This document shows positions 2,816 through 18,357 of a stretch of 18,357 nucleotides of DNA, piece by piece. The notes below the pieces were generated by a model. That model saw only the letters and a list, made by a program, of their open reading frames with translations. It did not search any database and was not told the DNA's origin. The stretch is from an uncultured bacterium. Lineage in GTDB: Bacteria > Armatimonadota > Hebobacteria > CAIYQO01. Position numbers and translations under genes: made by a program. Every line of letters begins with the position of its first letter. The stretch's first letter is position 1. The stretch covers positions 1 through 18,357 of the forward strand of contig CAIYQO010000315.1 of assembly GCA_903928345.1 (NCBI GenBank), given 5' to 3'.

Positions 2816-2845
2816 ATTGACAGCCCGGCGGGGGGCGGCGTAAAA
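2816..2845 (+). promoter_or_regulatory. near-consensus sigma70 promoter upstream of mraZ (TTGACA-18-TAAAAT)
   Basis: TTGACA at 2816-2821, an 18-nt GC-rich spacer, then TAAAAT at 2840-2845. The predicted TSS is about 2852, about 44 nt upstream of the mraZ ATG. Confidence 0.55.
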
Positions 2846-2881
2846 TGGCGCTGTCCGGTGGAAAATGGCGCGATCCGGCGA
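2843..2881 (+). promoter_or_regulatory. 20-bp tandem direct repeat (AAAATGGCGCnnTCCGGYG x2) overlapping the -10/TSS; candidate MraZ operator
   Basis: AAAATGGCGCTGTCCGGTGG at 2843-2862 is followed directly by AAAATGGCGCGATCCGGCG at 2863-2881. MraZ is known to autoregulate through direct repeats in its own promoter in E. coli. GGTGGAAAA also occurs at about 2771. Confidence 0.45.
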
Positions 2882-2895
2882 ATTGCGGGACTTGT

Positions 2896-3339
2896 ATGGG
2901 CGTTTACGGCGAATCCGAGCATCAGATCGACGATAACGGTCGCATCAATATCCCTCGTCGTTTTCAAGCATTGTTTGAACACGGGGGCTTCCTCACTCGC
3001 GCCTTAAACAGCCTGTCGCTGGTCTATTACACGCACGCGGCGTGGCAGGAGATTCAGGATCGGCTCAACGCCGTCGATTTCTCCGAGCAAGCCGCCGACG
3101 ACGTGGCCCGCTACTTCAGCATCGGCACGGAAGTGCGCTTGGACGGGCAGGGCCGGCTGACGATTCCGCCCAACCTGCGCCGCCGCGCCAACCTGGACAA
3201 AGACTTGACGTTGCTCGCCATCGGCAATCGGCTGGAGATCTGGAACTCCGCGGCCTGGCAGGCCTACGACAACGAACGTTTGACGCCCGGCAATTTGGGG
3301 CAAGCCCTGAGCGCGCTCAACCCGCGCCGTGCGGGCTGA
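2896..3339 (+). CDS. mraZ: transcriptional regulator MraZ
   Basis: It carries the duplicated MraZ/SpoVT-AbrB-like halves with signature GESEHQIDDNGRINIPRRF and DGQGRLTIPPNLRRR. The start was moved from the ORF-track ATG at 2845 to the ATG at 2896 (MGVYGESEH...), which matches the usual MraZ N-terminus and lies downstream of the predicted TSS. rsmH follows. Confidence 0.85.
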   Translation: MGVYGESEHQIDDNGRINIPRRFQALFEHGGFLTRALNSLSLVYYTHAAWQEIQDRLNAVDFSEQAADDVARYFSIGTEVRLDGQGRLTIPPNLRRRANLDKDLTLLAIGNRLEIWNSAAWQAYDNERLTPGNLGQALSALNPRRAG

Positions 3340-3354
3340 CCGCGGAGCCCGGCT

Positions 3355-4317
3355 ATGGACCGTGACAATGTAGAAACCGGAGCGGTGGACGCTCTCCACC
3401 ATGAGCCGGTCATGCTCGCCGAAGTGCTGGCGTACCTGGATCCCCAACCGGGGAAGACCATCGTAGACGCCACGCTGGGCGGCGGGGGCCATGCGCACGC
3501 CATTTGCGAGCGCCTCGGCCCCACGGGCCGCCTGATCGGCCTCGAGCAGGACGCCGACGCGCTGGCGCGGGCGCGGCGCCGGCTACACGGCTTTCCGGTC
3601 ACCTACGTGCACGAGAACTTTCGGCACCTTGACAACATCATATCGCATCTTGACCTCGGCTCCGTTGACGGGTATTTCTTCGACCTGGGGGTTTCTTCCT
3701 TCCAGCTCGACACCCCGGAGCGCGGATTCAGCTTTCGCTTCGACGCCCCGCTGGATATGCGCATGGACACCCGGATGCCCGACACCGCCGAGGACTTGAT
3801 TAACCGGATGACGGAGAGTGAGCTTATGCACATTTTTCTCGAATCCGGTTATGGACGGTGGGCGCGACGCCTGGCCAAAGCTGTTACCACGTCTCGGCAA
3901 CTATCACCGATCACCACGACCGCCACATTCGCCGCTTTAATCGCCGCAACGATTCCCGGACACCATCACAGCAAGATTCACCCTGCGACCAAGGCCTTCC
4001 AGGCCTTAAGGATCGCTGTCAATGATGAGATCGCCGCCCTGCATGCCGCATTGATCGCCGCCACCCATCACAGCAACGTCGCCGCACGCATTGTCGTCCT
4101 GTCCTACCACAGCTTGGAGGATGGAGAAACGAAACGGACGTTCCAATACCTCGCCGGCCGGCGTCCGCCCCCGTCCAATCCCTATGACCCGGAGCCTCCT
4201 GCCTTACCGCAGTTGCTCTCCGTGCTCACGAAAAAACCGTTGATCCCGTCGCCGGAAGAGATCCGGCGCAATCCGCGCAGTCGCAGCGCCAAGCTGCGCG
4301 CCGCGGAACGACTGTAG
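3355..4317 (+). CDS. rsmH: 16S rRNA (cytosine1402-N4)-methyltransferase RsmH (MraW)
   Basis: Motifs HEPVMLAEVL, DATLGGGGHA, DLGVSSFQLDTPERGFSF, DMRMD, SYHSLEDG and NPRSRSAKLR are all present. The position after mraZ is conserved. Confidence 0.9.
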   Translation: MDRDNVETGAVDALHHEPVMLAEVLAYLDPQPGKTIVDATLGGGGHAHAICERLGPTGRLIGLEQDADALARARRRLHGFPVTYVHENFRHLDNIISHLDLGSVDGYFFDLGVSSFQLDTPERGFSFRFDAPLDMRMDTRMPDTAEDLINRMTESELMHIFLESGYGRWARRLAKAVTTSRQLSPITTTATFAALIAATIPGHHHSKIHPATKAFQALRIAVNDEIAALHAALIAATHHSNVAARIVVLSYHSLEDGETKRTFQYLAGRRPPPSNPYDPEPPALPQLLSVLTKKPLIPSPEEIRRNPRSRSAKLRAAERL

Positions 4318-4538
4318 CCCCGCGCCTTTCCCGGGTATGGGCCACGCGCCCGTGCCTTGTCCGGCCAAGTCGGCCGGGCTGTGTCCCGAATCCCCAAACC
4401 GCGTGTGTTCGCGGGGCGTGGATGCCTGAGGGTCGCCTCGGGTATCGCCCCATCGTCGCCGTTCGACTTTTGCCGACGGGCTCGTCCCGTCTCCTAGCCC
4501 GCTCATTGCAACATCGCGTCATACCCGAGGTGGCCGTC

Positions 4539-5057
4539 ATGGCAGCTCTTGCGCAACGCACAGTTTGGTTGGAACCCGACGTCACCACCGAATCACCGGC
4601 GGTGGCGGTACGCCCTCGTCGGCGCACCCGCACTACCCCGCTCCTGTGGTCTCATACCGCCGTCGCCGTCAGCGTCGTCGCGCTCGGTGCGGCGTTGCTC
4701 CTCGCCTACGTGCATAGCTACGCGCGCCTGGCGGAGGGGGAATTCCACCGCCAGCGCCTGCAGACGGAGATCGCCCAACTGCAGCGCGACAACATCGCCC
4801 TCGGCCTGGAACTCGACCGGCTGGGCGCGCAGGCGCGCGTCTCCGAGTTGGCCAAGGCGCAGGGTCTGGAACTGCCCACCATGGACCGCGTGCAGTATGC
4901 CCGCGTGACGGCCCCCGCCGCCGTGGTCGTGGCGCAAGCGCCCAAACCCGCCCACTCCTGGCTGGCGCGGGCCGGCGCGTCCTTCCTGACCGCCATGGGA
5001 CACACCGTGCAGCGCATCAGCCGCGGTCCCGGCACACCGGCCTACGCGCAGGATTAA
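4539..5057 (+). CDS. ftsL: cell division protein FtsL-like (septum formation initiator family; single TM plus coiled coil)
   Basis: It sits between rsmH and ftsI. It has a TM helix (AVAVSVVALGAALLLAYV) followed by a leucine-zipper-like coiled coil (RLQTEIAQLQRDNIALGLELDRLGAQARVSELA). The start was chosen at the ATG at 4539, with GAGGTGG 8 nt upstream; the ORF-track start at 4422 gives an unlikely 39-aa extension. Confidence 0.65.
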   Translation: MAALAQRTVWLEPDVTTESPAVAVRPRRRTRTTPLLWSHTAVAVSVVALGAALLLAYVHSYARLAEGEFHRQRLQTEIAQLQRDNIALGLELDRLGAQARVSELAKAQGLELPTMDRVQYARVTAPAAVVVAQAPKPAHSWLARAGASFLTAMGHTVQRISRGPGTPAYAQD

Positions 5058-5143
5058 CCCGGTGGGCCGGCGGGCAAGAGAGAGACAGCCGCGCCGCGCC
5101 CCCGCCGACCGGCGGGACGCCGCGCTACAGCGTAATTCTGGTC

Positions 5144-5175
5144 GCGACATCCCTTGCCCCGGCAAGGGATGTCGC
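5144..5175 (+). promoter_or_regulatory. perfect 15-bp-stem hairpin (GCGACATCCCTTGCC cc GGCAAGGGATGTCGC) in the ftsL-ftsI spacer; possible attenuator or terminator
   Basis: It is a perfect inverted repeat. Only a weak U-tract follows (TGTTAACGGGTT). It lies 87 nt after the ftsL stop. Confidence 0.5.
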
Positions 5176-5180
5176 TGTTA

Positions 5181-5250
5181 ACGGGTTCAACGTTGAAGGT
5201 GCAAAGTTGAGCGTGCTGCTACCCGTTGAACGTTGAACTTTGCACGTTGC
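5181..5250 (+). promoter_or_regulatory. cluster of palindromes and direct repeats (TTCAACGTTGAA perfect 12-bp palindrome; GTGCAAAGTT / AACTTTGCAC inverted pair) immediately upstream of ftsI
   Basis: ACGGGTTCAACGTTGAAGGTGCAAAGTTG ... ACCCGTTGAACGTTGAACTTTGCACGTTG: two about 27-nt segments that are partly direct and partly inverted copies of each other. This looks like a protein operator or an RNA structure. A weak TTGAAC-18-TATTTC promoter candidate lies at about 5234-5263. Confidence 0.4.
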
Positions 5251-5300
5251 ACTCCGTATTTCGGTACGCGGAACCGGCGTTGCCATGAGGGAACCGGCAG

Positions 5301-7952
5301 ATGGCGACCTGGCTTTCAGGATACAGTCGACAACATCGCACCATCCGGCGCAACGCCGTCATCTGGTGCGGCATCTTCGCGGCGGTCTTTCTCTTGTTGG
5401 GCTGCCGCCTCCTCTGGTTGCAGACGGTACGCGGCCACTTCCTGCAGGCGCAGGCGGCGAGCTACATCAACCGCATCGAAGTGCTGGCCGCCCGCCGCGG
5501 CGAATTGCTCGACCGCGACCACAAGGCGCTGGCCCTCGACGACACCCGCGACTCCCTCTACGTCGATCCCGAGATGGTGGATAACGCCGCCTTCGTCGCC
5601 GGCCAACTGGCGCCGGTGATCGGCCGCCCGGAGCAGGAGATCGTCGACACCATCACCCGGCAGCTCCCCTTCATCTGGATCAAGCAAGCCATCGCGCCCA
5701 CCATCGCCACCACCGTGGACAGCCTGAAACTGCCCGGCGTCACCGTACAGGCGGACGGCGCGCGTTACCGCGTGGGTGCCAACCCGGCGTTGCTGCCGGC
5801 GAGCACCGGCGTGGCCGCCGCGCTGGCCACCGCCGCGGGGATGAAGCAGGCGACGCTGATCACGGCGTTGGGCATCCCCACCGCGCTGCCGCAGGAACAG
5901 AGCGGTCCGGTGGATCCGGAAGCCGACATGCCGGCCAAAGGCGCCCCCGCAAAACACGCCGCCAAGGTGGCGAAGCCCGCTCCCGCCCCCGTGAAGCCGC
6001 TGCCCCCGCCCCCGTCGGAGCAACGCTGGCTGCCGGGCGAGTTCAACGAGGCCTCGGCCAACGCGGTGCAGGCGCTGCACTTCACCGGTGTCACGGTGGA
6101 GAAGCTCGGTCCCAGCTTTTCCGTGGGTGTCGACCCGCGCCTCTACCTGAACCACACCGCGCCGATGACCGCCGACGCCGTGGCCGACCGCCTGGCGCCG
6201 CTCCTCGGTATGACCCACGACGCCGTGGTGCGCCGCCTGCTCTTCAAGCCGCGCTTCGCCTGGCTCTACCGCGGCCTTTCCGAGGAGATGAGCAACGCGG
6301 TGCAAAAGCTGCAGGGCACCTTCTACGTGCTCACGCCGGGCATCGCCGCCAGCGTCCCGTTGAAGGACGAGAAGACGGCGGACCCCGAGGCGCGCCTGAC
6401 GGCCGTGGTGGAGCGGCTGTATAAGATGATCAACCCGCAGCCGAAGCACGTGAAGCGCGGCCAGACGCCGGAGCCGGTAGTGGAGCTGATCTCCCATGAC
6501 GCGATCCGCGCCAAGCTGGTTGCCGGAGCGGCGCCCGGGCCGCTCATCGAGAAGCTCGATGACGGCCGCCCGGTGCTCTCCATCATCCGCCGCCTGAAGC
6601 AGGAGCCCATCCCCGGCGTGGTCTACGGCCTGCCGGGCGTGAGCACCAAGCAGGAGCGCCGCCGCCGCTACCCGTTCAGCAACATGGCCTCCGCCACGCT
6701 GGGCTTCGTGGGGTATTGGAACGACGCCTTCCACGGCGCCTTCGGGCTGGAACAGTCGGAGGACAAGACGCTGCGCGGCGAAGATGGCAAGATCAAACGG
6801 GAGATCGACACCCATCGCATGTCCATCCCCGAAAGCGACGTAATGCTGAAGGCGCCGGTGAACGGCTGCAACGTGGTGACCACGCTGAGCACCGACATCC
6901 AGCAGGTGGCGGACGACGAGTTGGGCAAGGCGGTGGACGCCACCCACGCGCTGCGCGGCGCCTGCGTGGTGATGGATTGCAACACCGGCGAGATCCTCGC
7001 CATGGCGACCTACCCGAACTGGGACGCCAACGCGCCGGGGAAATCCACGCTGCCGCTGGTGCACACCGCGGTGAGCAACTGGTACGAGCCGGGTTCGACC
7101 TTCAAAACGATGACCGTGCTGGCCGCGTTGGAGGAAGGCACGATCCACGACGGGGAGAACGTGACGTACTGCTCCGGCGCCCTGACGGTGGGCAACCACA
7201 CCATTCACGAGGCGCACGGCGCGCACGGCGAGGTGGACTGCGGGCGCCTGCTGGAGCAGTCCTGCAACCTGGGTGCCGCCACGCTGGCCATGAAACTCGG
7301 CCCGACGCGCTTCCTCAAGTGGTGCGACCGGCTGGGCTTCGGCAAGCCGACGGGGGTCGAGATCGCTAACGAATCCACCGGTTCTCTCAACCGCCTTAAC
7401 TGCGAGCGCGCGAAGATCACGCTGGCGAACGAGGGGTTCGGGCAGAGCATGGCCGTCACCCCACTGCAGATGCTCGCGCTCTACTCCGCCGTGGCCAACG
7501 GCGGCTACCTGGTGAAACCGCACCTGGTGAGCGCGCGCGAGCTGCCCGACGGCAGCTATCAGCCGGTGACCACGACGCGTACGCGGGTGTGCAAGGCGGA
7601 AACCGCCTCACTGATGCGCGGCTACCTGGAGCGGGTGGTCACCAAGGGCACCGGCAAGGCCGCCGCCATCCCCGGCTACCGCATCGGCGGCAAAACGGGC
7701 ACCGCGCAAAAGGCCGGCGTGGGCGGCTTCCGCCCCGGCAAGTATATCGGCAGCTTCATCGGCTTCCTGCCGGTGGAAAAGCCCCGCCTCGCCATCGTGG
7801 CCCTTATCGACGAGCCGCAAGGCGCCCACTACGGCGGCGTGATCGCCGCCCCGGTGGTCAGCGCCGTAGGCCGCCGCGCCATGGAATTTCTCAGCATCCC
7901 GCCCTCGAAGATCGTCACCACGAAAACGGCGAAACCCGCGGCTGAGCATTGA
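5301..7952 (+). CDS. ftsI: peptidoglycan D,D-transpeptidase FtsI / class B penicillin-binding protein with greatly expanded N-terminal module
   Basis: The N-terminal TM anchor is VIWCGIFAAVFLLLGCRLLWL. The transpeptidase motifs are SxxK (EPGSTFKT), SxN (EQSCNLG) and KTG (GGKTGTA). Its position after ftsL is conserved. At 883 aa it is about 300 aa longer than typical FtsI; the extra sequence precedes the transpeptidase domain and includes a Pro/Ala/Lys-rich linker (KGAPAKHAAKVAKPAPAPVKPLPPPPSEQ). Confidence 0.9.
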   Translation: MATWLSGYSRQHRTIRRNAVIWCGIFAAVFLLLGCRLLWLQTVRGHFLQAQAASYINRIEVLAARRGELLDRDHKALALDDTRDSLYVDPEMVDNAAFVAGQLAPVIGRPEQEIVDTITRQLPFIWIKQAIAPTIATTVDSLKLPGVTVQADGARYRVGANPALLPASTGVAAALATAAGMKQATLITALGIPTALPQEQSGPVDPEADMPAKGAPAKHAAKVAKPAPAPVKPLPPPPSEQRWLPGEFNEASANAVQALHFTGVTVEKLGPSFSVGVDPRLYLNHTAPMTADAVADRLAPLLGMTHDAVVRRLLFKPRFAWLYRGLSEEMSNAVQKLQGTFYVLTPGIAASVPLKDEKTADPEARLTAVVERLYKMINPQPKHVKRGQTPEPVVELISHDAIRAKLVAGAAPGPLIEKLDDGRPVLSIIRRLKQEPIPGVVYGLPGVSTKQERRRRYPFSNMASATLGFVGYWNDAFHGAFGLEQSEDKTLRGEDGKIKREIDTHRMSIPESDVMLKAPVNGCNVVTTLSTDIQQVADDELGKAVDATHALRGACVVMDCNTGEILAMATYPNWDANAPGKSTLPLVHTAVSNWYEPGSTFKTMTVLAALEEGTIHDGENVTYCSGALTVGNHTIHEAHGAHGEVDCGRLLEQSCNLGAATLAMKLGPTRFLKWCDRLGFGKPTGVEIANESTGSLNRLNCERAKITLANEGFGQSMAVTPLQMLALYSAVANGGYLVKPHLVSARELPDGSYQPVTTTRTRVCKAETASLMRGYLERVVTKGTGKAAAIPGYRIGGKTGTAQKAGVGGFRPGKYIGSFIGFLPVEKPRLAIVALIDEPQGAHYGGVIAAPVVSAVGRRAMEFLSIPPSKIVTTKTAKPAAEH

Positions 7953-8119
7953 CTTGCAGGGGCTATCCCCAATACGGTTCAGCTAAGCGTTTCGCGCTCC
8001 CGCGCGACCCCCGCCGCCCCGCTTGTTCCCCCCCAACAACAGATGTTCCGGTTGCGCGCGCACGCGGGGGGGATGATGGCAGTACGCTGTAGGATATTCG
8101 CGCAGGAAGGGGGCGCAGC

Positions 8120-9271
8120 ATGCTGTCCGGCCGGAGTTTTCGCCTGGGGCGCATCGGCGGCATCACGATCAACATCGACTACACCTGGTTCATCATCTTT
8201 GCACTGTTTGTCTTCCTGCTTGCCACCGCCTACTTCCCCGCGGTGCTGGCGCATGTGCCGCACCCCGCGTCCCCGTTGATGGTGTGGGGCACGGCGGTGC
8301 TCACCAGCGTGCTCTTTTTCGGCTCTGTGCTCGCGCACGAATTGTCCCACTCCTTCGTGGCGCGGCGGCACGGCATCCCCATCAACAGCATCACCCTGTT
8401 TATCTTCGGCGGGGTGGCGCAGATGGAGGACGAGCCGCAGACGCCGGGCGACGAATTCAAGATGGCGATCGCCGGGCCGCTGGCGAGCATTGCCATCGGG
8501 GTGCTCTTCATCATGCTCCTCGCCGGTGCGCACAACGTGCTGCCGCCGCTGGCCAACGCGGCGCTGTGGTATCTGGGCGCCATCAACATCATCCTCGCCG
8601 TCTTCAACCTGTTGCCTGGCTTCCCGCTGGACGGCGGGCGCGTCTTCCGCTCCCTGGTGTGGGCCATCACGCATGACCTGCGCCGCGCCACGCAGATCGC
8701 CTCCATCACCGGGCAGGGGTTCGGGTGGATCTTCATCGTCCTCGGCCTTGCCAGCCTGGTGGTGCCCGTGCTGGGCAAATACATCACGGTGTGGATGGCG
8801 CTGATCGGTTGGTTTTTGGTAAGCGCGGCGCGCAGCAGCTACCAGCAAGTAGTAATGCGCGATACCCTGAGCCACGTGCCGGTGCGCGACGTGATGCACC
8901 CGACCGTGGAGGCCGTGCCCGCCACGCTGTCGGTGCAGCAACTGGTGACGGACTACTTTCTGCGCGGCAGCTCCAGCGCGTTGCCGGTGGAGCTGAACGG
9001 CACGGTGACCGGCGTGGTAGGGGTGGAGGACGTGCAGGCGCTGCCGCGTGACGCGTGGTCGGGCACGCTGGTGAGCGAAATCGCCCGCCCACTCACCCAG
9101 GAGCAAACGCTGCACCCCGACGACGACGCCTGGGCCGCCACCAGCCGCATGGCGCACGGCAACCGCGACCGCGTGCTCATCACCGAAGGCGACCACGTGG
9201 AAGGCATCGTCACCCGCGGCAGCATCCTGCGCTGGTTGCAGACGCATAAGCCGGGGTTCGCGACGGGGTGA
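8120..9271 (+). CDS. site-2 protease family (peptidase M50) membrane metalloprotease with C-terminal CBS domain pair
   Basis: HExxH appears as AHELSHS within a TM region. The second zinc-ligand/LDG motif reads NLLPGFPLDGGRV. There are multiple TM helices. The C-terminal about 130 aa resemble a CBS pair (VRDVMHPTVEAV...; GVVGVEDV...; VEGIVTRGSILRWL). GGAAGGGGG lies 6 nt before the ATG. Confidence 0.85.
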   Translation: MLSGRSFRLGRIGGITINIDYTWFIIFALFVFLLATAYFPAVLAHVPHPASPLMVWGTAVLTSVLFFGSVLAHELSHSFVARRHGIPINSITLFIFGGVAQMEDEPQTPGDEFKMAIAGPLASIAIGVLFIMLLAGAHNVLPPLANAALWYLGAINIILAVFNLLPGFPLDGGRVFRSLVWAITHDLRRATQIASITGQGFGWIFIVLGLASLVVPVLGKYITVWMALIGWFLVSAARSSYQQVVMRDTLSHVPVRDVMHPTVEAVPATLSVQQLVTDYFLRGSSSALPVELNGTVTGVVGVEDVQALPRDAWSGTLVSEIARPLTQEQTLHPDDDAWAATSRMAHGNRDRVLITEGDHVEGIVTRGSILRWLQTHKPGFATG

Positions 9272-9300
9272 GCTTTCCGCCTCTCGCGTGACGTTTATCG

Positions 9301-9355
9301 GTCAGCGTGCCCTCACCCCCCGCCCCCTCTCCCAAAGGGATGAGGGCACGCTGAC
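9301..9355 (+). terminator. 15-bp perfect-stem hairpin with 25-nt C-rich loop, 30 nt after the M50 stop (possible terminator; no U-tract)
   Basis: GTCAGCGTGCCCTCA (9301-9315) pairs with TGAGGGCACGCTGAC (9341-9355). The loop CCCCCCGCCCCCTCTCCCAAAGGGA contains a TCCC/GGGA mini-stem. Confidence 0.4.
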
Positions 9356-9416
9356 GGACAGGCGTCCCAAACAAAACAGCAAAGGCGGTAGTCCCTCTCG
9401 TATAGCAAACATATGC

Positions 9417-9445
9417 TTGACATTGCCCTCCTTTTCTGCTATACT
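9417..9445 (+). promoter_or_regulatory. consensus-like sigma70 promoter (TTGACA-17-TATACT) upstream of the terminase fragment
   Basis: TTGACA at 9417-9422, a 17-nt spacer, then TATACT at 9440-9445. The ORF-track start at 9413 overlaps this promoter, so the real start is probably the ATG at 9515, preceded by GGAGGGGAA. Confidence 0.55.
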
Positions 9446-9514
9446 CCAGCCCTTCCAGGCATGAGGCGGAGGGGCGCCAGTGCCGCGGGGTTCACTTTCG
9501 GGGGGAGGGGAACG

Positions 9515-10249
9515 ATGCGGCAAGAGACGGCGACGCGCCCGTTGACCGATGTGGCGCGGGAGGAGCTGGGGGCGTTCGGCACGCAGGTCTTCGACCTGTG
9601 GCCGGCGGCGCACCACGAGGTGTGGGTGGAGCTGCTAAGCGACCCGCGCCTCAACCGGCTGCTCATCATCGCGCCGCCGGGCCATGCCAAATCCACCTGG
9701 TGCACCATCATCTACCCCGCGTGGCTGGTGGGGCGGCAACCCTCCGTCAATATCCTCCTCGTCTCCGCCACCGCGGCGCAGGCCCGGCTCTTCAGCGCCG
9801 GGGTGCGCGAAGCGGTGGTGGGCAGCCCCGCCTTCGCCGACATCTTCCCGGGTCTCGCGCCCGACCGCAAACGCGGCTGGGGGCAGAACGCGTGGTTCGT
9901 GCAGCGCCCGCCGGATAGCAACAAGGACGCCACTGTGGCCGCCTGCGGGGTAGGCGGGCCGCTCATCGGGCGCCGCGCCGACGTGATCATCGTCGACGAC
10001 CCCTGCGACCAGGCCAACACCACCACCGTAGCGCGCCGCGACAAGCTGTGGCAGTGGTTCCGCCAGACGCTGCTCACCCGTCTGCGCCCCAATGGCCGCG
10101 TGATCGTGGTGATGACCCGCTGGCACGAAGACGACCTGGCCGCCCGCCTGATCCGCAGCGGCGAATTCGCCGTCTGCCACCTGCGCGCCCTCAGCGACGG
10201 CCCCGACGTGCGCGCGACGCTCACCGTGCCGGGGGCGGTGCTGGGGTAG
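9515..10249 (+). pseudogene. phage terminase large subunit, N-terminal ATPase fragment (gene interrupted after the ATPase domain)
   Basis: Walker-A-like LIIAPPGHAKST, Walker B VIIVDDP and the terminase coupling motif TRWHEDDLAARL are present. The frame ends at the TAG at 10247-10249. The rest of the protein continues 128 nt downstream in another frame. Confidence 0.7.
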
Positions 10250-10289
10250 CGGATTGCCACCCCTACCTGTTATCGCCCCCCACCTCCGA

Positions 10290-10324
10290 CCCCTCCCCCG
10301 CAACGTCCTGTGGCGGGGGAGGGG
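10290..10324. repeat. hairpin family B copy 1 (CCCCTCCCCCGC - 11 nt - GCGGGGGAGGGG) inside the terminase-disrupting insert
   Basis: 12-bp perfect stem. The family recurs at 10360-10394 and 11265-11309. Confidence 0.65.
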
Positions 10325-10359
10325 AGAACAGAAATGCGAATAGTTTTCGATAATCATCT

Positions 10360-10394
10360 CCCTTCCCCCGTCACACGATGTTACGGGGGAAGGG
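10360..10394. repeat. hairpin family B copy 2 (CCCTTCCCCCGT - 11 nt - ACGGGGGAAGGG)
   Basis: 12-bp stem with an 11-nt loop. The loop contains the first ATG of the nuclease fragment. Confidence 0.65.
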
Positions 10395-11136
10395 CCGGGG
10401 ATGGGGGGCCGTCTTTCCGAAAGGGTACCAAATGCCGGACATCCTCATCCATCGCCGCGGCCCCGCGTTGTGGCCGGAGGTGTTTCCGCTCAAGCTGCTG
10501 CAGACGTTGAAGCGCGAGTTGGGGTCGCTGCTGTTTGAGACGGTGTACCAGGGGGAGCCGTCGCCGGCGCAAGGCACGGTATTTCAGCGCGGCTGGCTGG
10601 CGAGCTACACGGAGACACCGCGCGCGCTGGAGATCGGCCAAGCGTGGGATACCGCGTTGAAAGGCGGGCAGGAACACGACTACTCCTGCTGCGTGACGGG
10701 CGGGCGCGACGCCGACGGGCGGGTGTTTATCCTGGACGTGTGGCGCGGGCAGGTGGAGGCGCCGGCGCTGGGCCGGCAGGTGCTCATGCTCGCGGAACGG
10801 CACCAGCCGCGCTGGGTGGTGATGGAAGACGCCGGGGCGGGGGCCATGCTGCTGCAACAGATTCGCGGCCGCCGCCTGCCGATGATCCCCGTGACGCCGG
10901 TGAAGGACAAGCGCTTCCGCGCCGGAGTGGTGGCGCCGCTGGTGGAGCGCGGCGACGTGCGCCTGCCCGTCTACGCCCCGTGGCTGGAGGATTTCATGGG
11001 CGAATTACTCGGCTTCCCCGCGGGGCGGCACGACGACCAGGTGGATGCCTTCGTGCACCTGCTCACCCGCTTCGCCGCCCACTCCCCGCTACCCATGACC
11101 GACTGGGGACGCATCCAGCGGCCGGAGGGGTGGTAG
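10378..11136 (+). pseudogene. phage terminase large subunit, C-terminal nuclease fragment
   Basis: The linker/nuclease-domain motifs LWPEVFPLKLLQTLKRELGSLLFETVYQGEP and GRHDDQVDAFVHL (terminase RNaseH-like nuclease) are present. The frame is open from 10354 and differs from that of the ATPase fragment. There is no SD in front and no other phage structural genes in the window. Confidence 0.7.
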
Positions 11137-11187
11137 ATGGGGAATGCAAAGTGAAAAATGGAGAATGGAGAATGCAGAATGGGGGAC
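11118..11187 (+). repeat. about 70-bp direct repeat, copy 1 (GCGGCCGGAGGGGTGGTAGATGGGGAATGCAAAGTGAAAAATGGAGAATGGAGAATGCAGAATGGGGGAC); overlaps terminase last codons + stop; contains tandem NAGAATG heptamers
   Basis: It is about 97% identical to 13462-13532 (1 mismatch, 1 indel). Weaker similarity extends about 25 nt further upstream: the terminase ends ...DWGRIQRPEGW*, and the region before copy 2 reads ...DVRGAIRRPEGW* in frame. Confidence 0.8.
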
Positions 11188-11264
11188 TTACCCCGGCCTC
11201 AGAGGCGTTAGCTACTGTCACGGCTGGTCCGTTCTCCAACCCGACGATAAATCGTCAGTTGGGA

Positions 11265-11309
11265 CCCCCCCTCCCCCGCTAAGACTTGAAGACTTGCGGG
11301 GGAAGGGGG
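11265..11309. terminator. hairpin family B copy 3 (CCCCCCTCCCCCGC - 16 nt - GCGGGGGAAGGGGGG); likely bidirectional terminator between terminase fragment (+) and flotillin (-)
   Basis: 14-bp GC stem followed by CTTTTCC on the plus strand. It lies 8 nt from the flotillin stop. The loop contains AGACTTGAAGACTT. A further small palindrome CCAACCCGACGATAAATCGTCAGTTGG lies at about 11236-11263. Confidence 0.45.
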
Positions 11310-11316
11310 GCTTTTC

Positions 11317-13341
11317 CTACATCCGCGGTGCCGACGGGCCGCCGGACTCATCGCGGGGGTTTTGCGCCGGTTCCGTGCCTTCTACCGTCGTCGTTTCTAC
11401 CACGGACGTCGCTGCTGTACCTATGGGCGTCGTGCCCAGGTATTTCATCAGGGAGGCGGCCAGGCCATCGAGCGATCCACCCCCGCCGGTGACCAGGATA
11501 TCCGGCACGAACTTCATGTTCCCTTCCGCCAGCGCGGTGACGGCGTTCACCAGTGCGGTGGGCGCCTGTCCTAACGCCTGCACTTGCGCCTGGTAGGCTT
11601 TCGCGCGGGCCAATCCCACGGCTTCCACCTCGGCACCCTTGGCGGCGCCGGTTTCACGGATATAGGTGGCTTCGCCGTCCGCTTTGGCTTTCTGCGCGTT
11701 GGCGTTGTTCGTCTCGATATCCACGTTCACCCGCGACTGCGCCAGTTTGGCCTGCATATCCGCGGTACCCTTTGCCTGTTCCATGGAGATGCGCTGCTCT
11801 TCCGCGGCACGCTGTTTTTCGTAGGTCTCGATCTCCTGGAAGGCGATTTCGCGCTGGGTCAGCACGCGCACCATGTCATCGGGGAGGATCACGTCCTGGA
11901 TGTAGACGCCCTTCGTCTCCACCTGGTATTCGGCCAGTTGCGAGGCGATATGCGCGAAGGCTTCCGCCTGCACTTCCTGGCGCGTCTCGATGAACCTGAT
12001 CGCCGGCATGCTCTGCAATTTATCGCGGAAATGGTTGCCCACCGCGGCCTGCAACACTTCGTTGACCAGATTGTACATGGTGCCCACGCTGGAGATCACG
12101 CGCGGGGCCTTGGTGTCGGGCACGTGAATCTGCACCTGCAGGTCGAACTTGAAGACGAAGCCTTCCCGGCTTTTCGCTTCGATGGGCTGCAGGCGGCTGT
12201 CCAGGTTGTGCGCCTGGGAGACCACGTCCGCCCAGTTGATGGTGAGGATGGCCGTGGGCACGATTTCCGCCTGGTAGACGCGCGGATTGATGGGGTATTT
12301 CCCGGTGCGCAACGGCTCCTGCCAGATGCCGCGATGGCCCGGGCGCACCAGACTGCCATATTTGAAATCCACCCCGGAGGTGTCTTTGGTCACCAGGCCG
12401 ACATAGGCCTTGATCACCGCGACTTCGCCCTGCTGCACCACCAGCATCGGCACCATCTCCACGGACACCAGGAAGGGGTTCAGCGCGTAGGCGCCATAGA
12501 GCAGCGGGTCGTGCTGCAAGCCGATTTTGCCGCCATTGGTGAGGAAGGCCTGGAAATCCTGGTAGTTGTTGTGAAGGTTATTCATGTTACCGAGCAGCCG
12601 CTCGATAACTTCCGCGTCGTTCGCTTTGTCATTCTCCATCTTATCGATGTCATCGAAGCCACCCAGGCGGCAGGCGATGTCGCCCGCCGGCAAGGGATCG
12701 CCTTCATAGGCCGTGACGATGCCGATGGCATCCAGCATATTGCCGCCGGGTCCGGTCGGCTGCGGTTGAATGCGCACCAGTTCCAACTGTTCAGGACGCA
12801 AGCCGAAGGATTCCGGCACCAGGCGACGCTGGGCATCCACCTGCAATTGCGACGACGAGATGGGCACGCCATACACCTGCCGTTTGGTGATGACCAGAAA
12901 GCCCACCGGATGAATCGGCATCAAGGTCCCCGGCGGGAAGACGGGACGCTGGACGCCCTTTTGCCCCCCACGCTGAATGAAGGCGCGCAGGTCGCTGAAG
13001 TTGGCGAACTCGTTTTTATAGATGGCGGATTTCGCGCCGATGGGCAAAGATGACCCCACCTGCGCGATCACCACGCCTATCTCGTTGGCCGGCACCTGCA
13101 CCCAGGGGAATTTCTCGATCTTGTAGAGAATGGCCAACTTGAAGCGCAATCCGGGCATGAGGAGATCGGCCTGATAGCCGGCTTCGCCGTGAAAGGCAAT
13201 GGGGTTGTCTTCCATCAGCCGTTTGAAGCTGAAGCGTTTCGTCACCAGGCCGACCTGGGTCGGGCCGATCGAACGGAACGAGAAGAGGAGAATGAGGGCA
13301 ACCGCGATCCCTGCCGCCCACAACAATGTTACAAGATCCAT
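11317..13341 (-). CDS. flotillin-like SPFH/band-7 domain protein (YqiK/FloT-type) with long C-terminal coiled coil
   Basis: It has an N-terminal TM (LLWAAGIAVALILLF), an SPFH-like core, and an extended Ala/Gln/Glu-rich coiled-coil region (EIETYEKQRAAEEQRISMEQAKGTADMQAKLAQSR...AKAYQAQVQALGQA) typical of bacterial flotillins. AAGGAGG lies 7 nt upstream of the ATG. Confidence 0.8.
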   Translation of the reverse strand: MDLVTLLWAAGIAVALILLFSFRSIGPTQVGLVTKRFSFKRLMEDNPIAFHGEAGYQADLLMPGLRFKLAILYKIEKFPWVQVPANEIGVVIAQVGSSLPIGAKSAIYKNEFANFSDLRAFIQRGGQKGVQRPVFPPGTLMPIHPVGFLVITKRQVYGVPISSSQLQVDAQRRLVPESFGLRPEQLELVRIQPQPTGPGGNMLDAIGIVTAYEGDPLPAGDIACRLGGFDDIDKMENDKANDAEVIERLLGNMNNLHNNYQDFQAFLTNGGKIGLQHDPLLYGAYALNPFLVSVEMVPMLVVQQGEVAVIKAYVGLVTKDTSGVDFKYGSLVRPGHRGIWQEPLRTGKYPINPRVYQAEIVPTAILTINWADVVSQAHNLDSRLQPIEAKSREGFVFKFDLQVQIHVPDTKAPRVISSVGTMYNLVNEVLQAAVGNHFRDKLQSMPAIRFIETRQEVQAEAFAHIASQLAEYQVETKGVYIQDVILPDDMVRVLTQREIAFQEIETYEKQRAAEEQRISMEQAKGTADMQAKLAQSRVNVDIETNNANAQKAKADGEATYIRETGAAKGAEVEAVGLARAKAYQAQVQALGQAPTALVNAVTALAEGNMKFVPDILVTGGGGSLDGLAASLMKYLGTTPIGTAATSVVETTTVEGTEPAQNPRDESGGPSAPRM

Positions 13342-13461
13342 CGTACGCCTCCTTATACCTTGCGTGTAACACGTTTAACTAACTTCGACGCCTCCGGCGG
13401 GGGTTCCTGCTTCCAGTATGCCGACATCCAGTCGGCGCGTGGATGTCAGGGGGGCCATTCG

Positions 13462-13532
13462 GCGGCCGGAGGGGTGGTAGGTGGGGAATGCAAAGTGAAA
13501 AATGGAGAATGGAGAATGCAGAATGGGGGGAC
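13462..13532 (+). repeat. about 70-bp direct repeat, copy 2 (same orientation as 11118-11187)
   Basis: See copy 1. It lies in the spacer between the two minus-strand genes, upstream of the flotillin start. Confidence 0.8.
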
Positions 13533-13550
13533 AACCGCACCCCGTTCGAC

Positions 13551-13578
13551 ATTTTCCATTCTCCATTGTGCATTGCCG
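13551..13578. repeat. inverted partial copy of the NAGAATG heptamer array (CATTTTCCATTCTCCATTGTGCATTGCC)
   Basis: Its reverse complement GGCAATGCACAATGGAGAATGGAAAATG matches AATGCA.A.TG.A.AATGGA.AATG in 13485-13525. With the 25-nt spacer (containing GGGGTGCGGTTGTCCCC) it can form a long imperfect stem-loop just 3' of the 13589..14425 gene on the minus-strand transcript. Confidence 0.55.
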
Positions 13579-13588
13579 CAACGCGACC

Positions 13589-14425
13589 CTATTTTTTCAC
13601 CAGCGTCGACTTGCTGCGGGTGTATTGCAGGTCGACGGTGGCTTTGCGGTGTTCCAGTTGGGCGAGGCTGAGTTCGATGATCTCCTCGGCCTCGTAGGTG
13701 CTCATGGTGCCGACGGTGACCATGTCGCAGTCGCGCAGGGTGTTCCACACGAAGGCCATGCCGGTGGGGGGCAGCAGACGGCCCGCGGCGAGGGGCTTGA
13801 TGGTCATCACGGGGCATTTGGCGTTCTGGATGGTTTGCCCAATCCAGTCCGTCTCCACCTGGCACAGGAAGCCGGCGGCGTTGTACGGGGTGATGTACGT
13901 TGCCACGTCGGCGTCGCAATTGTCGGCGCAGAGGATCGCCTCCGGGTTGTGCGAACTCAGGCCGGGCACCAGCCCCATGGCGCGCACGATGCGCAGCAGC
14001 TCCGCCAAATCCGGCGCTAGGCAGGTATTCACGCGGTCGAGCCGTGGGTCGGTGGTGCACTGGTGCGGAAAACAGAAGGTGGCGCCGAAGTCGATGCACT
14101 CCTGCACGGTGCGTTTCCAACCGTCGTAGCCGCCTGACATCTCCCAGTGCGGCGTGCACACCCAGAGCATCCGCTCGCCGGTGCGCTGCTCCACCTCGCG
14201 CAGCGCGTCGGCGGTGAAGACGCTCTGCATGCTCATGAAGGCGTTGCAGCCGGCGCGCGCGAAGACTTCGATCACGTCGGCCATCTTCTTCGGCGTGTCG
14301 AACATCTCCTTGATCAGCCGATCCTTGGCGCGACTGGTGTGGGAGAAGCCCAGGAACCAGTTGCTGCCGCAGATCAGCCGCGGCATGGAGACCCCACCGA
14401 CATCGGTGCGTGGAAACCCACTCAT
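13589..14425 (-). CDS. hypothetical Cys-rich soluble protein (13 Cys; no family recognised)
   Basis: The long ORF shows coding-like composition. The start was chosen at the internal ATG (MSGFPRT...), which has GAGAAGGGGGC immediately upstream. Candidate motifs are PRLICGSNWFLGFSH, FCFPHQCTTD and ILCADNCDAD. I could not assign it to a known family from memory. Confidence 0.55.
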   Translation of the reverse strand: MSGFPRTDVGGVSMPRLICGSNWFLGFSHTSRAKDRLIKEMFDTPKKMADVIEVFARAGCNAFMSMQSVFTADALREVEQRTGERMLWVCTPHWEMSGGYDGWKRTVQECIDFGATFCFPHQCTTDPRLDRVNTCLAPDLAELLRIVRAMGLVPGLSSHNPEAILCADNCDADVATYITPYNAAGFLCQVETDWIGQTIQNAKCPVMTIKPLAAGRLLPPTGMAFVWNTLRDCDMVTVGTMSTYEAEEIIELSLAQLEHRKATVDLQYTRSKSTLVKK

Positions 14426-14458
14426 AATGCCCCCTTCTCGAGACAGGACTGACACCCG

Positions 14459-14756: not shown

Positions 14757-15152
14757 ATGCGGCACACAGTACTGGTGATAGACGACCAATGGTCCATGCA
14801 AGAGCTGGCTCGCATTGTCCTGCAGACCGCGGGGTTCCGCGTGCTGTTGGCGGGCGACGGCGCCACCGGTCTCAGCCTCGCGCGTACGGAACACCCGGAT
14901 GCCATTCTCCTCGATCTGCGCATGCCCGGCCTCGACGGCCTGGACGTGTTGCGCGTGTTGCGCCAACAGGCGGGCACGGCGGAGATTCCGGTGCTGCTCA
15001 TCACGCCCGATGCCGGCGAAGAGGCCCAGGCGGCCGAACGCCGCGCCGGCACGGCGGAGATCCTGCGCAAGCCCTTCCACCCCCCCGAGCTGCTGCGCGG
15101 CGTGCAAAACCTGCTCGCCCGCCCCACGCTGCCGGTAGCGATGACGGGGTGA
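14757..15152 (+). CDS. stand-alone CheY-like response regulator receiver domain protein
   Basis: REC residues are present: VLVIDD (acidic pocket), LLDLRMPGLDG (phospho-acceptor Asp), LLIT (Thr) and LRKPF (Lys). There is no output domain. AAGGGAGG lies 8 nt upstream of the ATG at 14757. Confidence 0.85.
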   Translation: MRHTVLVIDDQWSMQELARIVLQTAGFRVLLAGDGATGLSLARTEHPDAILLDLRMPGLDGLDVLRVLRQQAGTAEIPVLLITPDAGEEAQAAERRAGTAEILRKPFHPPELLRGVQNLLARPTLPVAMTG

Positions 15153-15170
15153 CCGGTCGCCGACATGCAC

Positions 15171-15325
15171 TTTGGGAGGGCGAGTGTACCCGCGAGCCGC
15201 GCGCGTATGCTCCGCGTTGAAAGCAGAAATGGTCTGTACGTGTGACCGCTCACACGTACAGACCATTCGCGTGTTTCTCTGCGATTGCCTCGCACGCGGC
15301 TCGCGGGTACGCTCGCCCTCCCAAA
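15171..15325. mobile_element. MITE-like / structured element: 31-bp terminal inverted repeats (1 mismatch) enclosing a perfect 14-bp-stem hairpin
   Basis: The left arm TTTGGGAGGGCGAGTGTACCCGCGAGCCGCG (15171-15201) pairs with the right arm CGCGGCTCGCGGGTACGCTCGCCCTCCCAAA (15295-15325). The inner hairpin is GTCTGTACGTGTGA ccgc TCACACGTACAGAC (15232-15263). It starts 19 nt after the response-regulator stop. No target-site duplication is obvious. Confidence 0.4.
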
Positions 15326-15417
15326 GGTTACGAATCCCCTTCCCCGATCACCCCACAAGGTATCCGCCCCGCGACGCCGAAATAAAGGGTAGTTTACCCG
15401 TAAAGGAGCCTTCCCTG

Positions 15418-18245: not shown

Positions 18246-18267
18246 CTGTAGGGACTGTCCCGTAACG
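18246..18267. repeat. repeat family A copy (CTGTAGGGACTGTCCCGTAACG), 6 nt after the stop of the hydrolase gene
   Basis: Same motif as 1671-1691. Confidence 0.7.
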
Positions 18268-18333
18268 CCTCGGGCGAGGTGTTATGCTAATCGCACTGCA
18301 CCCGTCTGGGACGCGTGCATACCAACCGACATC

Positions 18334-18357
18334 CTGCAGGGGCTGTCCCGTGGCGGA
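18334..18357. repeat. repeat family A copy (CTGCAGGGGCTGTCCCGTGGCGGA), truncated by the window end
   Basis: It matches 1758-1777 (the left arm of the 1757-1812 hairpin). It lies 66 nt after the previous copy, the same spacing as at 1671/1757. Confidence 0.7.

Follow-up and report, generated by a model that had tools for sequence, protein, structure and literature searches.

How does a solitary membrane-protein gene come to lie between two copies of a sequence that encodes the last residues of a terminase? The question is raised by contig CAIYQO010000315.1, an 18,357-bp contig of a metagenome bin from an uncultured Armatimonadota bacterium. The window analyzed here is this whole contig, and all window-wide scans are limited to these 18 kb. 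On it, a flotillin-like gene is enclosed by two direct repeats, and a preliminary description of the DNA had read the gene as cargo inserted at the 3′ end of the terminase gene, with the repeats resembling the attachment (att) sites of an integrative element. We find that each repeat joins the end of the terminase gene to one arm of a long hairpin, and that the hairpin's other arm adjoins only the second copy. The locus is best viewed as a scar that a rearrangement left at a terminator palindrome, with an att-like duplication and without the enzyme that defines an integrative element.

A direct repeat built from a gene end and a hairpin arm

The features that carry the argument are as follows, in window coordinates; an asterisk denotes a stop codon, and ORF an open reading frame.

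10432–11136, + strand: ORF for the C-half (RNaseH-like nuclease) of the terminase large subunit, ending in RPEGW* (Pfam Terminase_6C, E = 2.4e-13; TIGR01630, E = 1e-22)
11118–11185, + strand: direct repeat copy 1, with 19 nt of the terminase C-half end, a 4-nt spacer and a 45-nt left arm that has no inverted partner (repeat alignment, folding)
11157–11182, + strand: AATGGAG heptamer array in copy 1, 3.7 copies (tandem-repeat analysis)
11186–11316: flotillin 3′ flank, with hairpins at 11233–11264 and 11265–11310, then CTTTTCC on the + strand (fold z = −4.2 on +, −5.2 on −)
11317–13341, − strand: gene for a 674-aa SPFH/Band 7 (flotillin/YqiK-like) membrane protein (Pfam Band_7, E = 5e-18)
13342–13461, − strand: flotillin 5′ leader, with the ribosome binding site (RBS) AAGGAGG and a hairpin with an 8-bp stem at 13424–13448 (read from the sequence)
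13462–13529, + strand: direct repeat copy 2, an apparent orphan terminase 3′ end (13462–13480) followed by the left hairpin arm (repeat alignment)
13501–13526, + strand: AATGGAG heptamer array in copy 2 (tandem-repeat analysis)
13471–13597, + strand: long imperfect hairpin and T-run, resembling an intrinsic terminator (fold −66.9 kcal/mol, z = −6.3; 33 nt 82% complementary)
13589–14455, − strand: gene X, an ORF for a Cys-rich protein of 278–288 aa on the flotillin strand (no match in Pfam, PHROG, NCBIfam or PADLOC)

The two repeats are 68 nt long, have the same orientation and are identical at 67 of 68 positions, which sharpens the earlier estimate of about 70 bp and 97% identity. Their sole difference is an A at 11137 versus a G at 13481. 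By a rough estimate, the expected number of chance 68-mers with at most one mismatch in 18 kb is far below 1e-20; the next repeat families in the window reach only 20–40 nt at 63–90% identity, and none rivals this pair. The interval between the copies (11186–13461) contains two hairpins, one 674-aa SPFH gene on the minus strand and its 120-nt leader, a single gene with its own RBS and terminators.

Each copy is composed of 19 coding nucleotides of the terminase including the stop codon, a 4-nt spacer and the 45-nt arm. In copy 1, the coding part reads CGG CCG GAG GGG TGG TAG (RPEGW*) and is the end of the terminase C-half ORF, so that the repeat does run over the final codons and stop as first reported. 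In copy 2, the identical 19 nt have no gene attached. It had also been proposed that copy 2 lies within a degenerate duplicate of a longer terminase end; the 19 nt are exact, but the longer stretch (DVRGAI versus DWGRIQ) is statistically insecure.

The borders of the repeat are abrupt. Its 100-nt flanks are as similar to each other as shuffled sequences are (left P = 0.84, right P = 0.51), and in the 15–30 nt directly left of the copies there is a marginal similarity (P about 0.02, roughly 14/21). This similarity, which reaches 15–21 nt upstream from copy 2, and the resulting two-tier identity pattern would suit an alternative in which copy 2 is the remnant of a paralogous terminase, or of a duplicated segment made up of the terminase 3′ end and its terminator, whose body was deleted while 68 nt were kept identical by gene conversion. 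Such a history takes no fewer than three steps (a duplication, a deletion and a conversion), 13342–13461 contains nothing else that derives from a terminase, and the local hairpin at 13424–13448 explains part of the extra similarity. We regard it as distinctly improbable.

An error of assembly could also place a repeat on both sides of a gene, either as a misresolved A-R-S-R-B loop or as a chimera joined inside the conserved flotillin gene. The window is an entire contig of a metagenome-assembled genome (MAG), the flotillin gene is 85–93% identical at the nucleotide level between species over 11700–12500, and two other assemblies of the same strain (L143 and L144) both end at 11761, the same base inside that gene. 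However, the single mismatch leaves exact matches of 19 and 48 nt, which are below the usual final k-mers and yield an unambiguous path. The left junction, from the terminase through copy 1 to the flotillin 3′ end, is 100% identical in these two independent assemblies over 10351/10355–11761; the right junction (leader, copy 2, hairpin and gene X) is known from the present assembly only. A chimera would still require the 68-nt unit in both of its parents, and we consider an artefact very unlikely.

The tandem heptamer arrays noted earlier are present in both copies, with a period of 7 and 3.7 units each. They are perfectly conserved between the copies and adjoin a terminase under purifying selection, as would be expected if the repeats were functional sites, recognized by the split terminase or by a regulator that brackets the flotillin gene, whose identity is maintained by selection without any scar. 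But nine other loci show no enrichment of GAGAATG around the split terminase, which led us to reject the heptamers as terminase recognition sites; the identity extends to non-heptamer and coding sequence, and the element is absent from the closest relative. We give hardly any credence to this explanation.

A terminator-like hairpin beside copy 2

A feature missed by the preliminary description separates the two copies. An inverted partner arm (13540–13572; 33 nt, 82% complementary) adjoins copy 2 only, with an 11-nt loop between, and the two inverted copies pair as a hairpin whose left arm spans 13484–13529 and whose right arm spans 13540–13580. The plus-strand RNA of 13471–13590 folds at −66.9 kcal/mol (z = −6.3), a value equaled by none of 200 shuffles, whereas the copy 1 region folds no better than shuffles (z = −1.4). 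Directly after the fold, and on the plus strand only, comes UUUUUU (TTTTTT at 13592–13597). The basal pairing of the hairpin includes the terminase-derived GGGGU, and its base covers the stop codon and two Lys codons of the convergent gene X. The window contains just three arms of this type.

The DNA upstream of this hairpin is the flotillin leader, which is read from the opposite strand, and no plus-strand gene is found there. From its fold and T-run, the hairpin looks like an intrinsic terminator for a plus-strand gene that is now lacking. Among the related loci described below, a hairpin is found near the terminase stop codon in L127 and L128, and in L145 together with a T-run. An orphan plus-strand terminator at copy 2 thus fits an insertion, because relatives carry a hairpin close behind the terminase stop.

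Native origin of the repeat parts

A metagenome scan and protein searches yielded 10 terminase loci (L001, L126–L129, L145–L147, L148 and L149) and 6 flotillin loci (among them L003, L004/L005, L140, L141/L142 and the P0125 locus) for comparison. The closest terminase relatives, L145–L147, have 81–83% nucleotide identity to the window, and 90% amino acid identity in the C-half. The terminase C-terminus is RIQRPEGW* in the window, IQRPDGW* in L145, TIQRPRGW* in L126, LGRRPAGW* in L127, SGRPPGW* in L128 and LKQPSDW* in L001, and the motif RPxGW* is conserved in six family members. Because relatives keep this motif, the RPEGW* codons of the repeat are evidently native terminase sequence and copy 2 evidently an orphan gene end. 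The 45-nt arm, judged by its pairing, appears native to the palindrome that it forms with 13540–13580.

The coding piece and the arm form one contiguous block in both copies; therefore, a single ancestor had the terminase end, left arm, loop, right arm and T-run together. Complementarity between the palindrome's arms is 82%, against 98.5% identity between the direct copies, and so the palindrome is considerably older than the duplication.

In the relatives, the two genes are found apart. None of the terminase loci L001, L126–L129 and L145–L148 has a flotillin gene downstream of the terminase, and no related flotillin locus has a terminase beside it. Flanking repeats of at least 12 nt around the flotillin gene occur in 0 of the 5 flotillin loci whose DNA was checked. 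The homology of L145–L147 to the window stops exactly at the terminase stop codon; neither flank matches, and the next 243 nt contain no heptamers, no flotillin gene and no gene X, and the hairpin is lacking there as well. L140 (flotillin) and L145 (terminase) come from the same JGI sample, and we rejected their assignment to one organism (synonymous divergence, dS, of 1.1 versus 0.35–0.5; different G+C content at third codon positions, GC3).

A tentative model of insertion into a terminator hairpin

We tentatively favor, with a probability of roughly 0.45, a recent recombination that placed the 2.28-kb flotillin segment between the terminase stop region and the rest of its terminator hairpin. 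In the ancestral order, the terminase C-half would have been followed by the left arm, loop, right arm and T-run, and then by the convergent gene X. That the complete hairpin and its T-run are kept at copy 2 implies that the terminase end and the hairpin were adjacent before the segment intervened. The segment would have consisted of the flotillin gene, its own 120-nt leader and its 131-nt terminator flank, and its arrival would have duplicated 68 bp: the 19-nt terminase end, the 4-nt spacer and the 45-nt left arm. The present order would then be the terminase with RPEGW* (copy 1), the flotillin gene on the minus strand, the orphan RPEGW* (copy 2) with loop, right arm and T-run, and gene X.

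A circular intermediate that carried the 68-bp match and recombined once with the chromosome would fit this geometry. The crossover might have been either an att-like, site-specific recombination catalyzed in trans or a Campbell-type homologous exchange. As a consequence, the terminase would keep its C-terminus but depend on the flotillin terminator, while its old terminator would be stranded upstream of the flotillin gene. By their position, the hairpins at the flotillin 3′ end now appear to double as the terminase's first downstream terminator-like structure.

Several observations weigh against this model. The preliminary description had called for a search for an integrase or recombinase on the contig, and no integrase, recombinase or transposase is encoded in the insert or in the ORFs tested on the 18-kb contig. 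The inserted gene is highly conserved and apparently vertically inherited (hundreds of homologues at 72–84% amino acid identity), unlike the cargo of genomic islands, and with a GC3 of 0.80 it does not stand out from the window's other genes. An empty site, with one repeat copy and joined flanks, was likewise sought among the available relatives and none was found. The non-adjacency of terminase and flotillin genes elsewhere mostly reflects scrambled synteny; it is weak evidence, since each relative has a different gene order around the two genes. Finally, the right border of the repeat is the exact tip of the hairpin arm, as the boundary of a repetitive extragenic palindrome (REP)-type unit would give.

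This last point leads to an explanation in which nothing moved. The 45-nt arm would belong to a family resembling REPs and their hairpin-forming doublets (REPINs), present as a singlet after the terminase and as an inverted doublet after gene X, and gene conversion or templated break repair would have copied the arm together with 19–23 nt of terminase sequence from copy 1 to copy 2. Neither a recombinase nor a moving housekeeping gene would be required. A doublet and a singlet are the usual picture for REPIN/REP sequences (PMC3116915), and the contig abounds in small palindromic repeats of several families, described below, at which assemblies break; break repair might, for example, follow cleavage at a palindrome, and the short similarity at the left border (CAT-C) would suit a microhomology join. 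Arrays of (GGAGAAT)n, moreover, are intergenic in many phyla, including in an Armatimonadota MAG. Yet the conversion tract would have to run 19–23 nt beyond the repeat into unique coding sequence, and the terminase would be left without its own hairpin right after the stop codon, unlike its relatives. Neither the 18-kb window nor 218 kb of related loci contains a further copy of the arm, and both the U-run and the basal pairing with terminase-derived GGGGU would be coincidences. We judge this account to be less likely than the insertion, but to be its most serious competitor.

The first reading of the locus, an att-flanked cargo gene, is thus partly supported: the direct repeats, the duplicated native terminase end and the orphan copy agree with it, while the missing recombinase and a conserved gene as the 'cargo' do not, and none of the relatives' loci is a true empty site. 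The locus is not classifiable as an integrative element, because the defining feature, an integrase or recombinase of its own, was looked for in the tested ORFs and not found. In a bolder version, the 68-bp repeats would be the working sites of a single-gene cassette from which the flotillin gene is looped out and re-inserted at the split terminase's terminator, catalyzed in trans, conceivably by the orphan terminase ATPase/nuclease pair; we think this most improbable. It would imply presence/absence variation of a membrane-organizing gene.

The two repeats would make the flotillin gene deletable by recombination, and strain-level presence/absence is predicted. The empty-site junction is predicted to have the terminase body upstream of ...CAGCGGCCGGAGGGGTGGTAG[A/G]TGGGG...GCAGAATGGGGGGACAACCGCACCCCGTTCG, and the circle or excision junction to read ...GGGGGGCCATTCG + 68 nt + ACTTACCCCGGCC. 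If the insertion model is correct, a gene of conserved, housekeeping type can move by itself, as a unit, into the hairpin of a terminator, with an att-like duplication and no recombinase. It would then caution against taking every duplication of a gene's 3′ end on both sides as a mobile element, and would suggest that in these repeat-rich genomes long terminator palindromes may act as hot spots of rearrangement. On present evidence, the locus amounts to the scar of a local rearrangement and is of modest general interest.

Comparison with known systems

The e14 prophage in the Escherichia coli icd gene offers an instructive parallel. There, icd runs into one prophage end, a C-terminal fragment (icdC) lies at the other, and recombination between direct repeats removes the insert (PMC13626634). 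The likeness is in the intact target gene at one end of the insert, the short orphan C-terminal copy at the other and the direct repeats. In contrast, e14 is a prophage of 15 kb that encodes an integrase of its own and is excised upon SOS induction, while the segment here is 2.28 kb with one housekeeping-type gene and no recombinase, and its repeated block also includes half a terminator hairpin.

A cis-mobilizable element (CIME) is defined as a segment between direct repeats at a gene's 3′ end without its own integrase (PMC5704250), a description that the present segment shares. CIMEs are decayed integrative and conjugative or integrative and mobilizable elements with accessory cargo, recognized through a cognate element at the same att site, whereas neither a cognate element nor any decayed transfer gene is seen in the 18 kb available here. 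By this analogy, an att-flanked remnant is at most a resemblance.

REP and REPIN sequences are extragenic palindromes mobilized by REP-associated tyrosine transposases (RAYTs) (PMC3116915). The inverted doublet, an approximately 95-nt hairpin beside a gene end, a lone arm nearby and other palindromic families in the vicinity all recall them, and two inverted copies do form a hairpin here (13484–13529 with 13540–13580). They differ from the present repeat in being strictly extragenic, since it reaches 19 nt into coding sequence; its arms are about 45 nt long with heptamer sub-repeats, and the window encodes no RAYT.

Arrays of short tandemly repeated repetitive (STRR) type, made of heptanucleotides, have been described in cyanobacteria. 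They resemble the arrays found here in being tandem 7-nt units in intergenic DNA, but here only 3.7 units lie inside a larger, unique 68-nt block. A scan of genome contigs with the pattern AATGGAGAATGGARAATG found (GGAGAAT)n arrays in at least 120 stretches (L006–L125) from many phyla, and none of the stretches listed matches the 68-nt block beyond the heptamers. Among the matches listed, the arrays are intergenic in Chloroflexota, Planctomycetota, Bacteroidota, cyanobacteria, Acidobacteriota and one Armatimonadota MAG; examples are L058 (5895–5940), L078 (646–845) and L071 (2254–2387). The L058 array adjoins a second heptamer array (CTGACCA/CTGACTA), reminiscent of the cyanobacterial STRR repeats.

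Other classes were rejected. The target-site duplication of a transposon or insertion sequence is 2–15 bp, while the repeat here is 68 bp; the ends of the interval at 11186/13461 also lack terminal inverted repeats, and a transposase is absent. For an integron cassette with its attC site, copy 1 has no inverted arm (z = −1.4), there is no GTTRRRY at the borders and no intI. A retro-copy was rejected from the anatomy of the locus. No tRNA, tmRNA or other known RNA that might serve as an integration target lies in the window, and no Rfam family matches. A phage or viral origin of the 68-nt unit was rejected as well, the unit being absent from IMG/VR and from phage records; it is absent from the 218 kb of related loci too.

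The split terminase

Upstream of copy 1, the terminase region comprises three further features.

9417–9445, + strand: sigma-70-like promoter TTGACA-17-TATACT, TG-extended (11 of 12 matches; 0.1 expected in shuffles)
9515–10249, + strand: ORF for the N-half (ATPase) of the terminase large subunit (phrog_38, E = 1e-56; phrog_4758, E = 1e-37; Pfam Terminase_6N weak)
10250–10431: spacer between the terminase ORFs, with two REP-like G+C hairpins of the CCCCTCCCCCGC...GCGGGGGAGGGG type (read from the sequence)

Every terminase locus examined shares one split point, with an ATPase ORF before it and a nuclease ORF, in the +2 frame, after it; the end of the N-half ORF has a constant position throughout the family. 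The spans are 9417–11136 in the window, 301–1895 in L001, 1006–2477 in L128, 4643–6035 in L129, 224–1812 in L145 and 9276–10720 in L148; L126 and L127 are split too. Half-length PHROGs families match each ORF separately (phrog_4758 and phrog_5573). The two ORFs overlap (ATGA/ATGCTGA) in L001, L128, L129 and L148, and because of this the window's spacer appears to be a lineage-specific insertion. Elsewhere, a hairpin-rich spacer of 110–371 nt separates the ORFs, with a fresh RBS in L126 and L127. A TTGACA/TAGTAT pair similar to the window's promoter can be read upstream of the terminase in L001.

The C-half had been called a terminase nuclease fragment, a name that does not hold: the terminase is conserved as a pair of ORFs, of which this is the C-terminal one. 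The ratio of nonsynonymous to synonymous substitution rates (dN/dS) against L145 is 0.23 and 0.12 (0.12 for the C-half), and 0.36–0.40 against L001, values similar to that of the flotillin gene (0.13). A phage terminase is a single polypeptide with portal, capsid and small-terminase neighbors; in this family, both domains are present but always as two ORFs, located in ordinary chromosomal neighborhoods beside housekeeping genes, and even a 60-kb contig carries no further phage genes. A pattern scan of viral contigs found no relatives of the split terminase. PADLOC returned no match for the terminase halves, the flotillin gene or gene X, and their membership in a defense system was accordingly rejected. 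The split terminase looks domesticated rather than decayed, and as a chromosomal gene pair it is more curious than the repeats beside it.

The flotillin gene

The SPFH protein has the features of its family. A Band 7 domain covers residues 323–514 (Pfam Band_7, as listed above), the N-terminus is hydrophobic and would serve as the membrane anchor, and residues 520–600, read from the translation, are rich in Ala, Glu and Gln, as in the C-terminal coiled-coil region of flotillins. A sequence search of the PDB with the protein found no match, and for this reason 'flotillin' is a family-level label only. Its homologues are mostly labelled Armatimonadota, under the source names SPFH domain protein or YqiK. 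In the window, L003, L004, L140, L141 and the P0125 locus, the protein is 650–710 aa long, with an N-terminal extension of about 300 aa before Band 7. The gene is solitary, and its neighbors differ in every genome in spite of the 72–84% amino acid identity.

A foreign origin of the gene, judged by composition, is unconvincing: its GC3 lies inside the contig gene range of 0.75–0.93 and there is no mosaic pattern along the gene. The hairpin pair at its 3′ end folds at −46.8 kcal/mol on the plus strand and −55.4 kcal/mol on the minus strand. No sigma-70 consensus was found in its leader.

Genomic context

The contig's other genes are ordinary chromosomal ones. The stretch 2845–9271 contains the start of a division and cell-wall cluster (mraZ, rsmH, an ftsL-like gene and an ftsI-type gene for a penicillin-binding protein), followed by an M50 protease with a CBS domain in place of mur genes. 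An ORF at 14758–15153 reads, by eye, as a response-regulator receiver type, and a 1022-aa ORF has no family match. No phage genes other than the terminase were found on the contig.

The other assemblies of this strain, from other ENA samples, differ from the window upstream of the terminase C-half, where a DUF433 gene stands instead of the N-half (L143, 1–704). L143 departs from the window at 10355, inside a CCCCTCCCCCGC-type hairpin of the terminase spacer. Assembly breaks, at repeats or in conserved sequence, might account for the differences of L143 and L144, as might genuine structural variation within the population. ENA ERZ18625109 and ERZ27313079 contain this strain.

Several palindromic families populate the intergenic DNA. 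G+C-rich hairpins of the form CCCCTCCCCCGC-loop-GCGGGGGAGGGG occur in the window at 10283–10330, 10357–10407 and 11265–11310, and also at 9290–9366, as well as in L126 (240–612) and L145 (940–1108). In three genomes they occupy the very gap between the two terminase ORFs, and they behave like a dispersed repeat of the REP type or of the miniature inverted-repeat transposable element (MITE) type. The palindromic repeat TGCAGGGACTGTCCCGTGACG (family D3) has six direct and inverted copies at 1671–1817 and 18247–18355, at both contig ends, which it probably explains. A further palindrome, I1 (CTTTGGGAGGGCGAGTGTACCCGCGAGC...), has 36-nt arms that are 94% complementary and lies at 15170–15326, downstream of the response-regulator-like gene; its core, TTGGGAGGGCGAG, is also located 3′ of the terminase in L145 (1925–1975), where two assemblies break.

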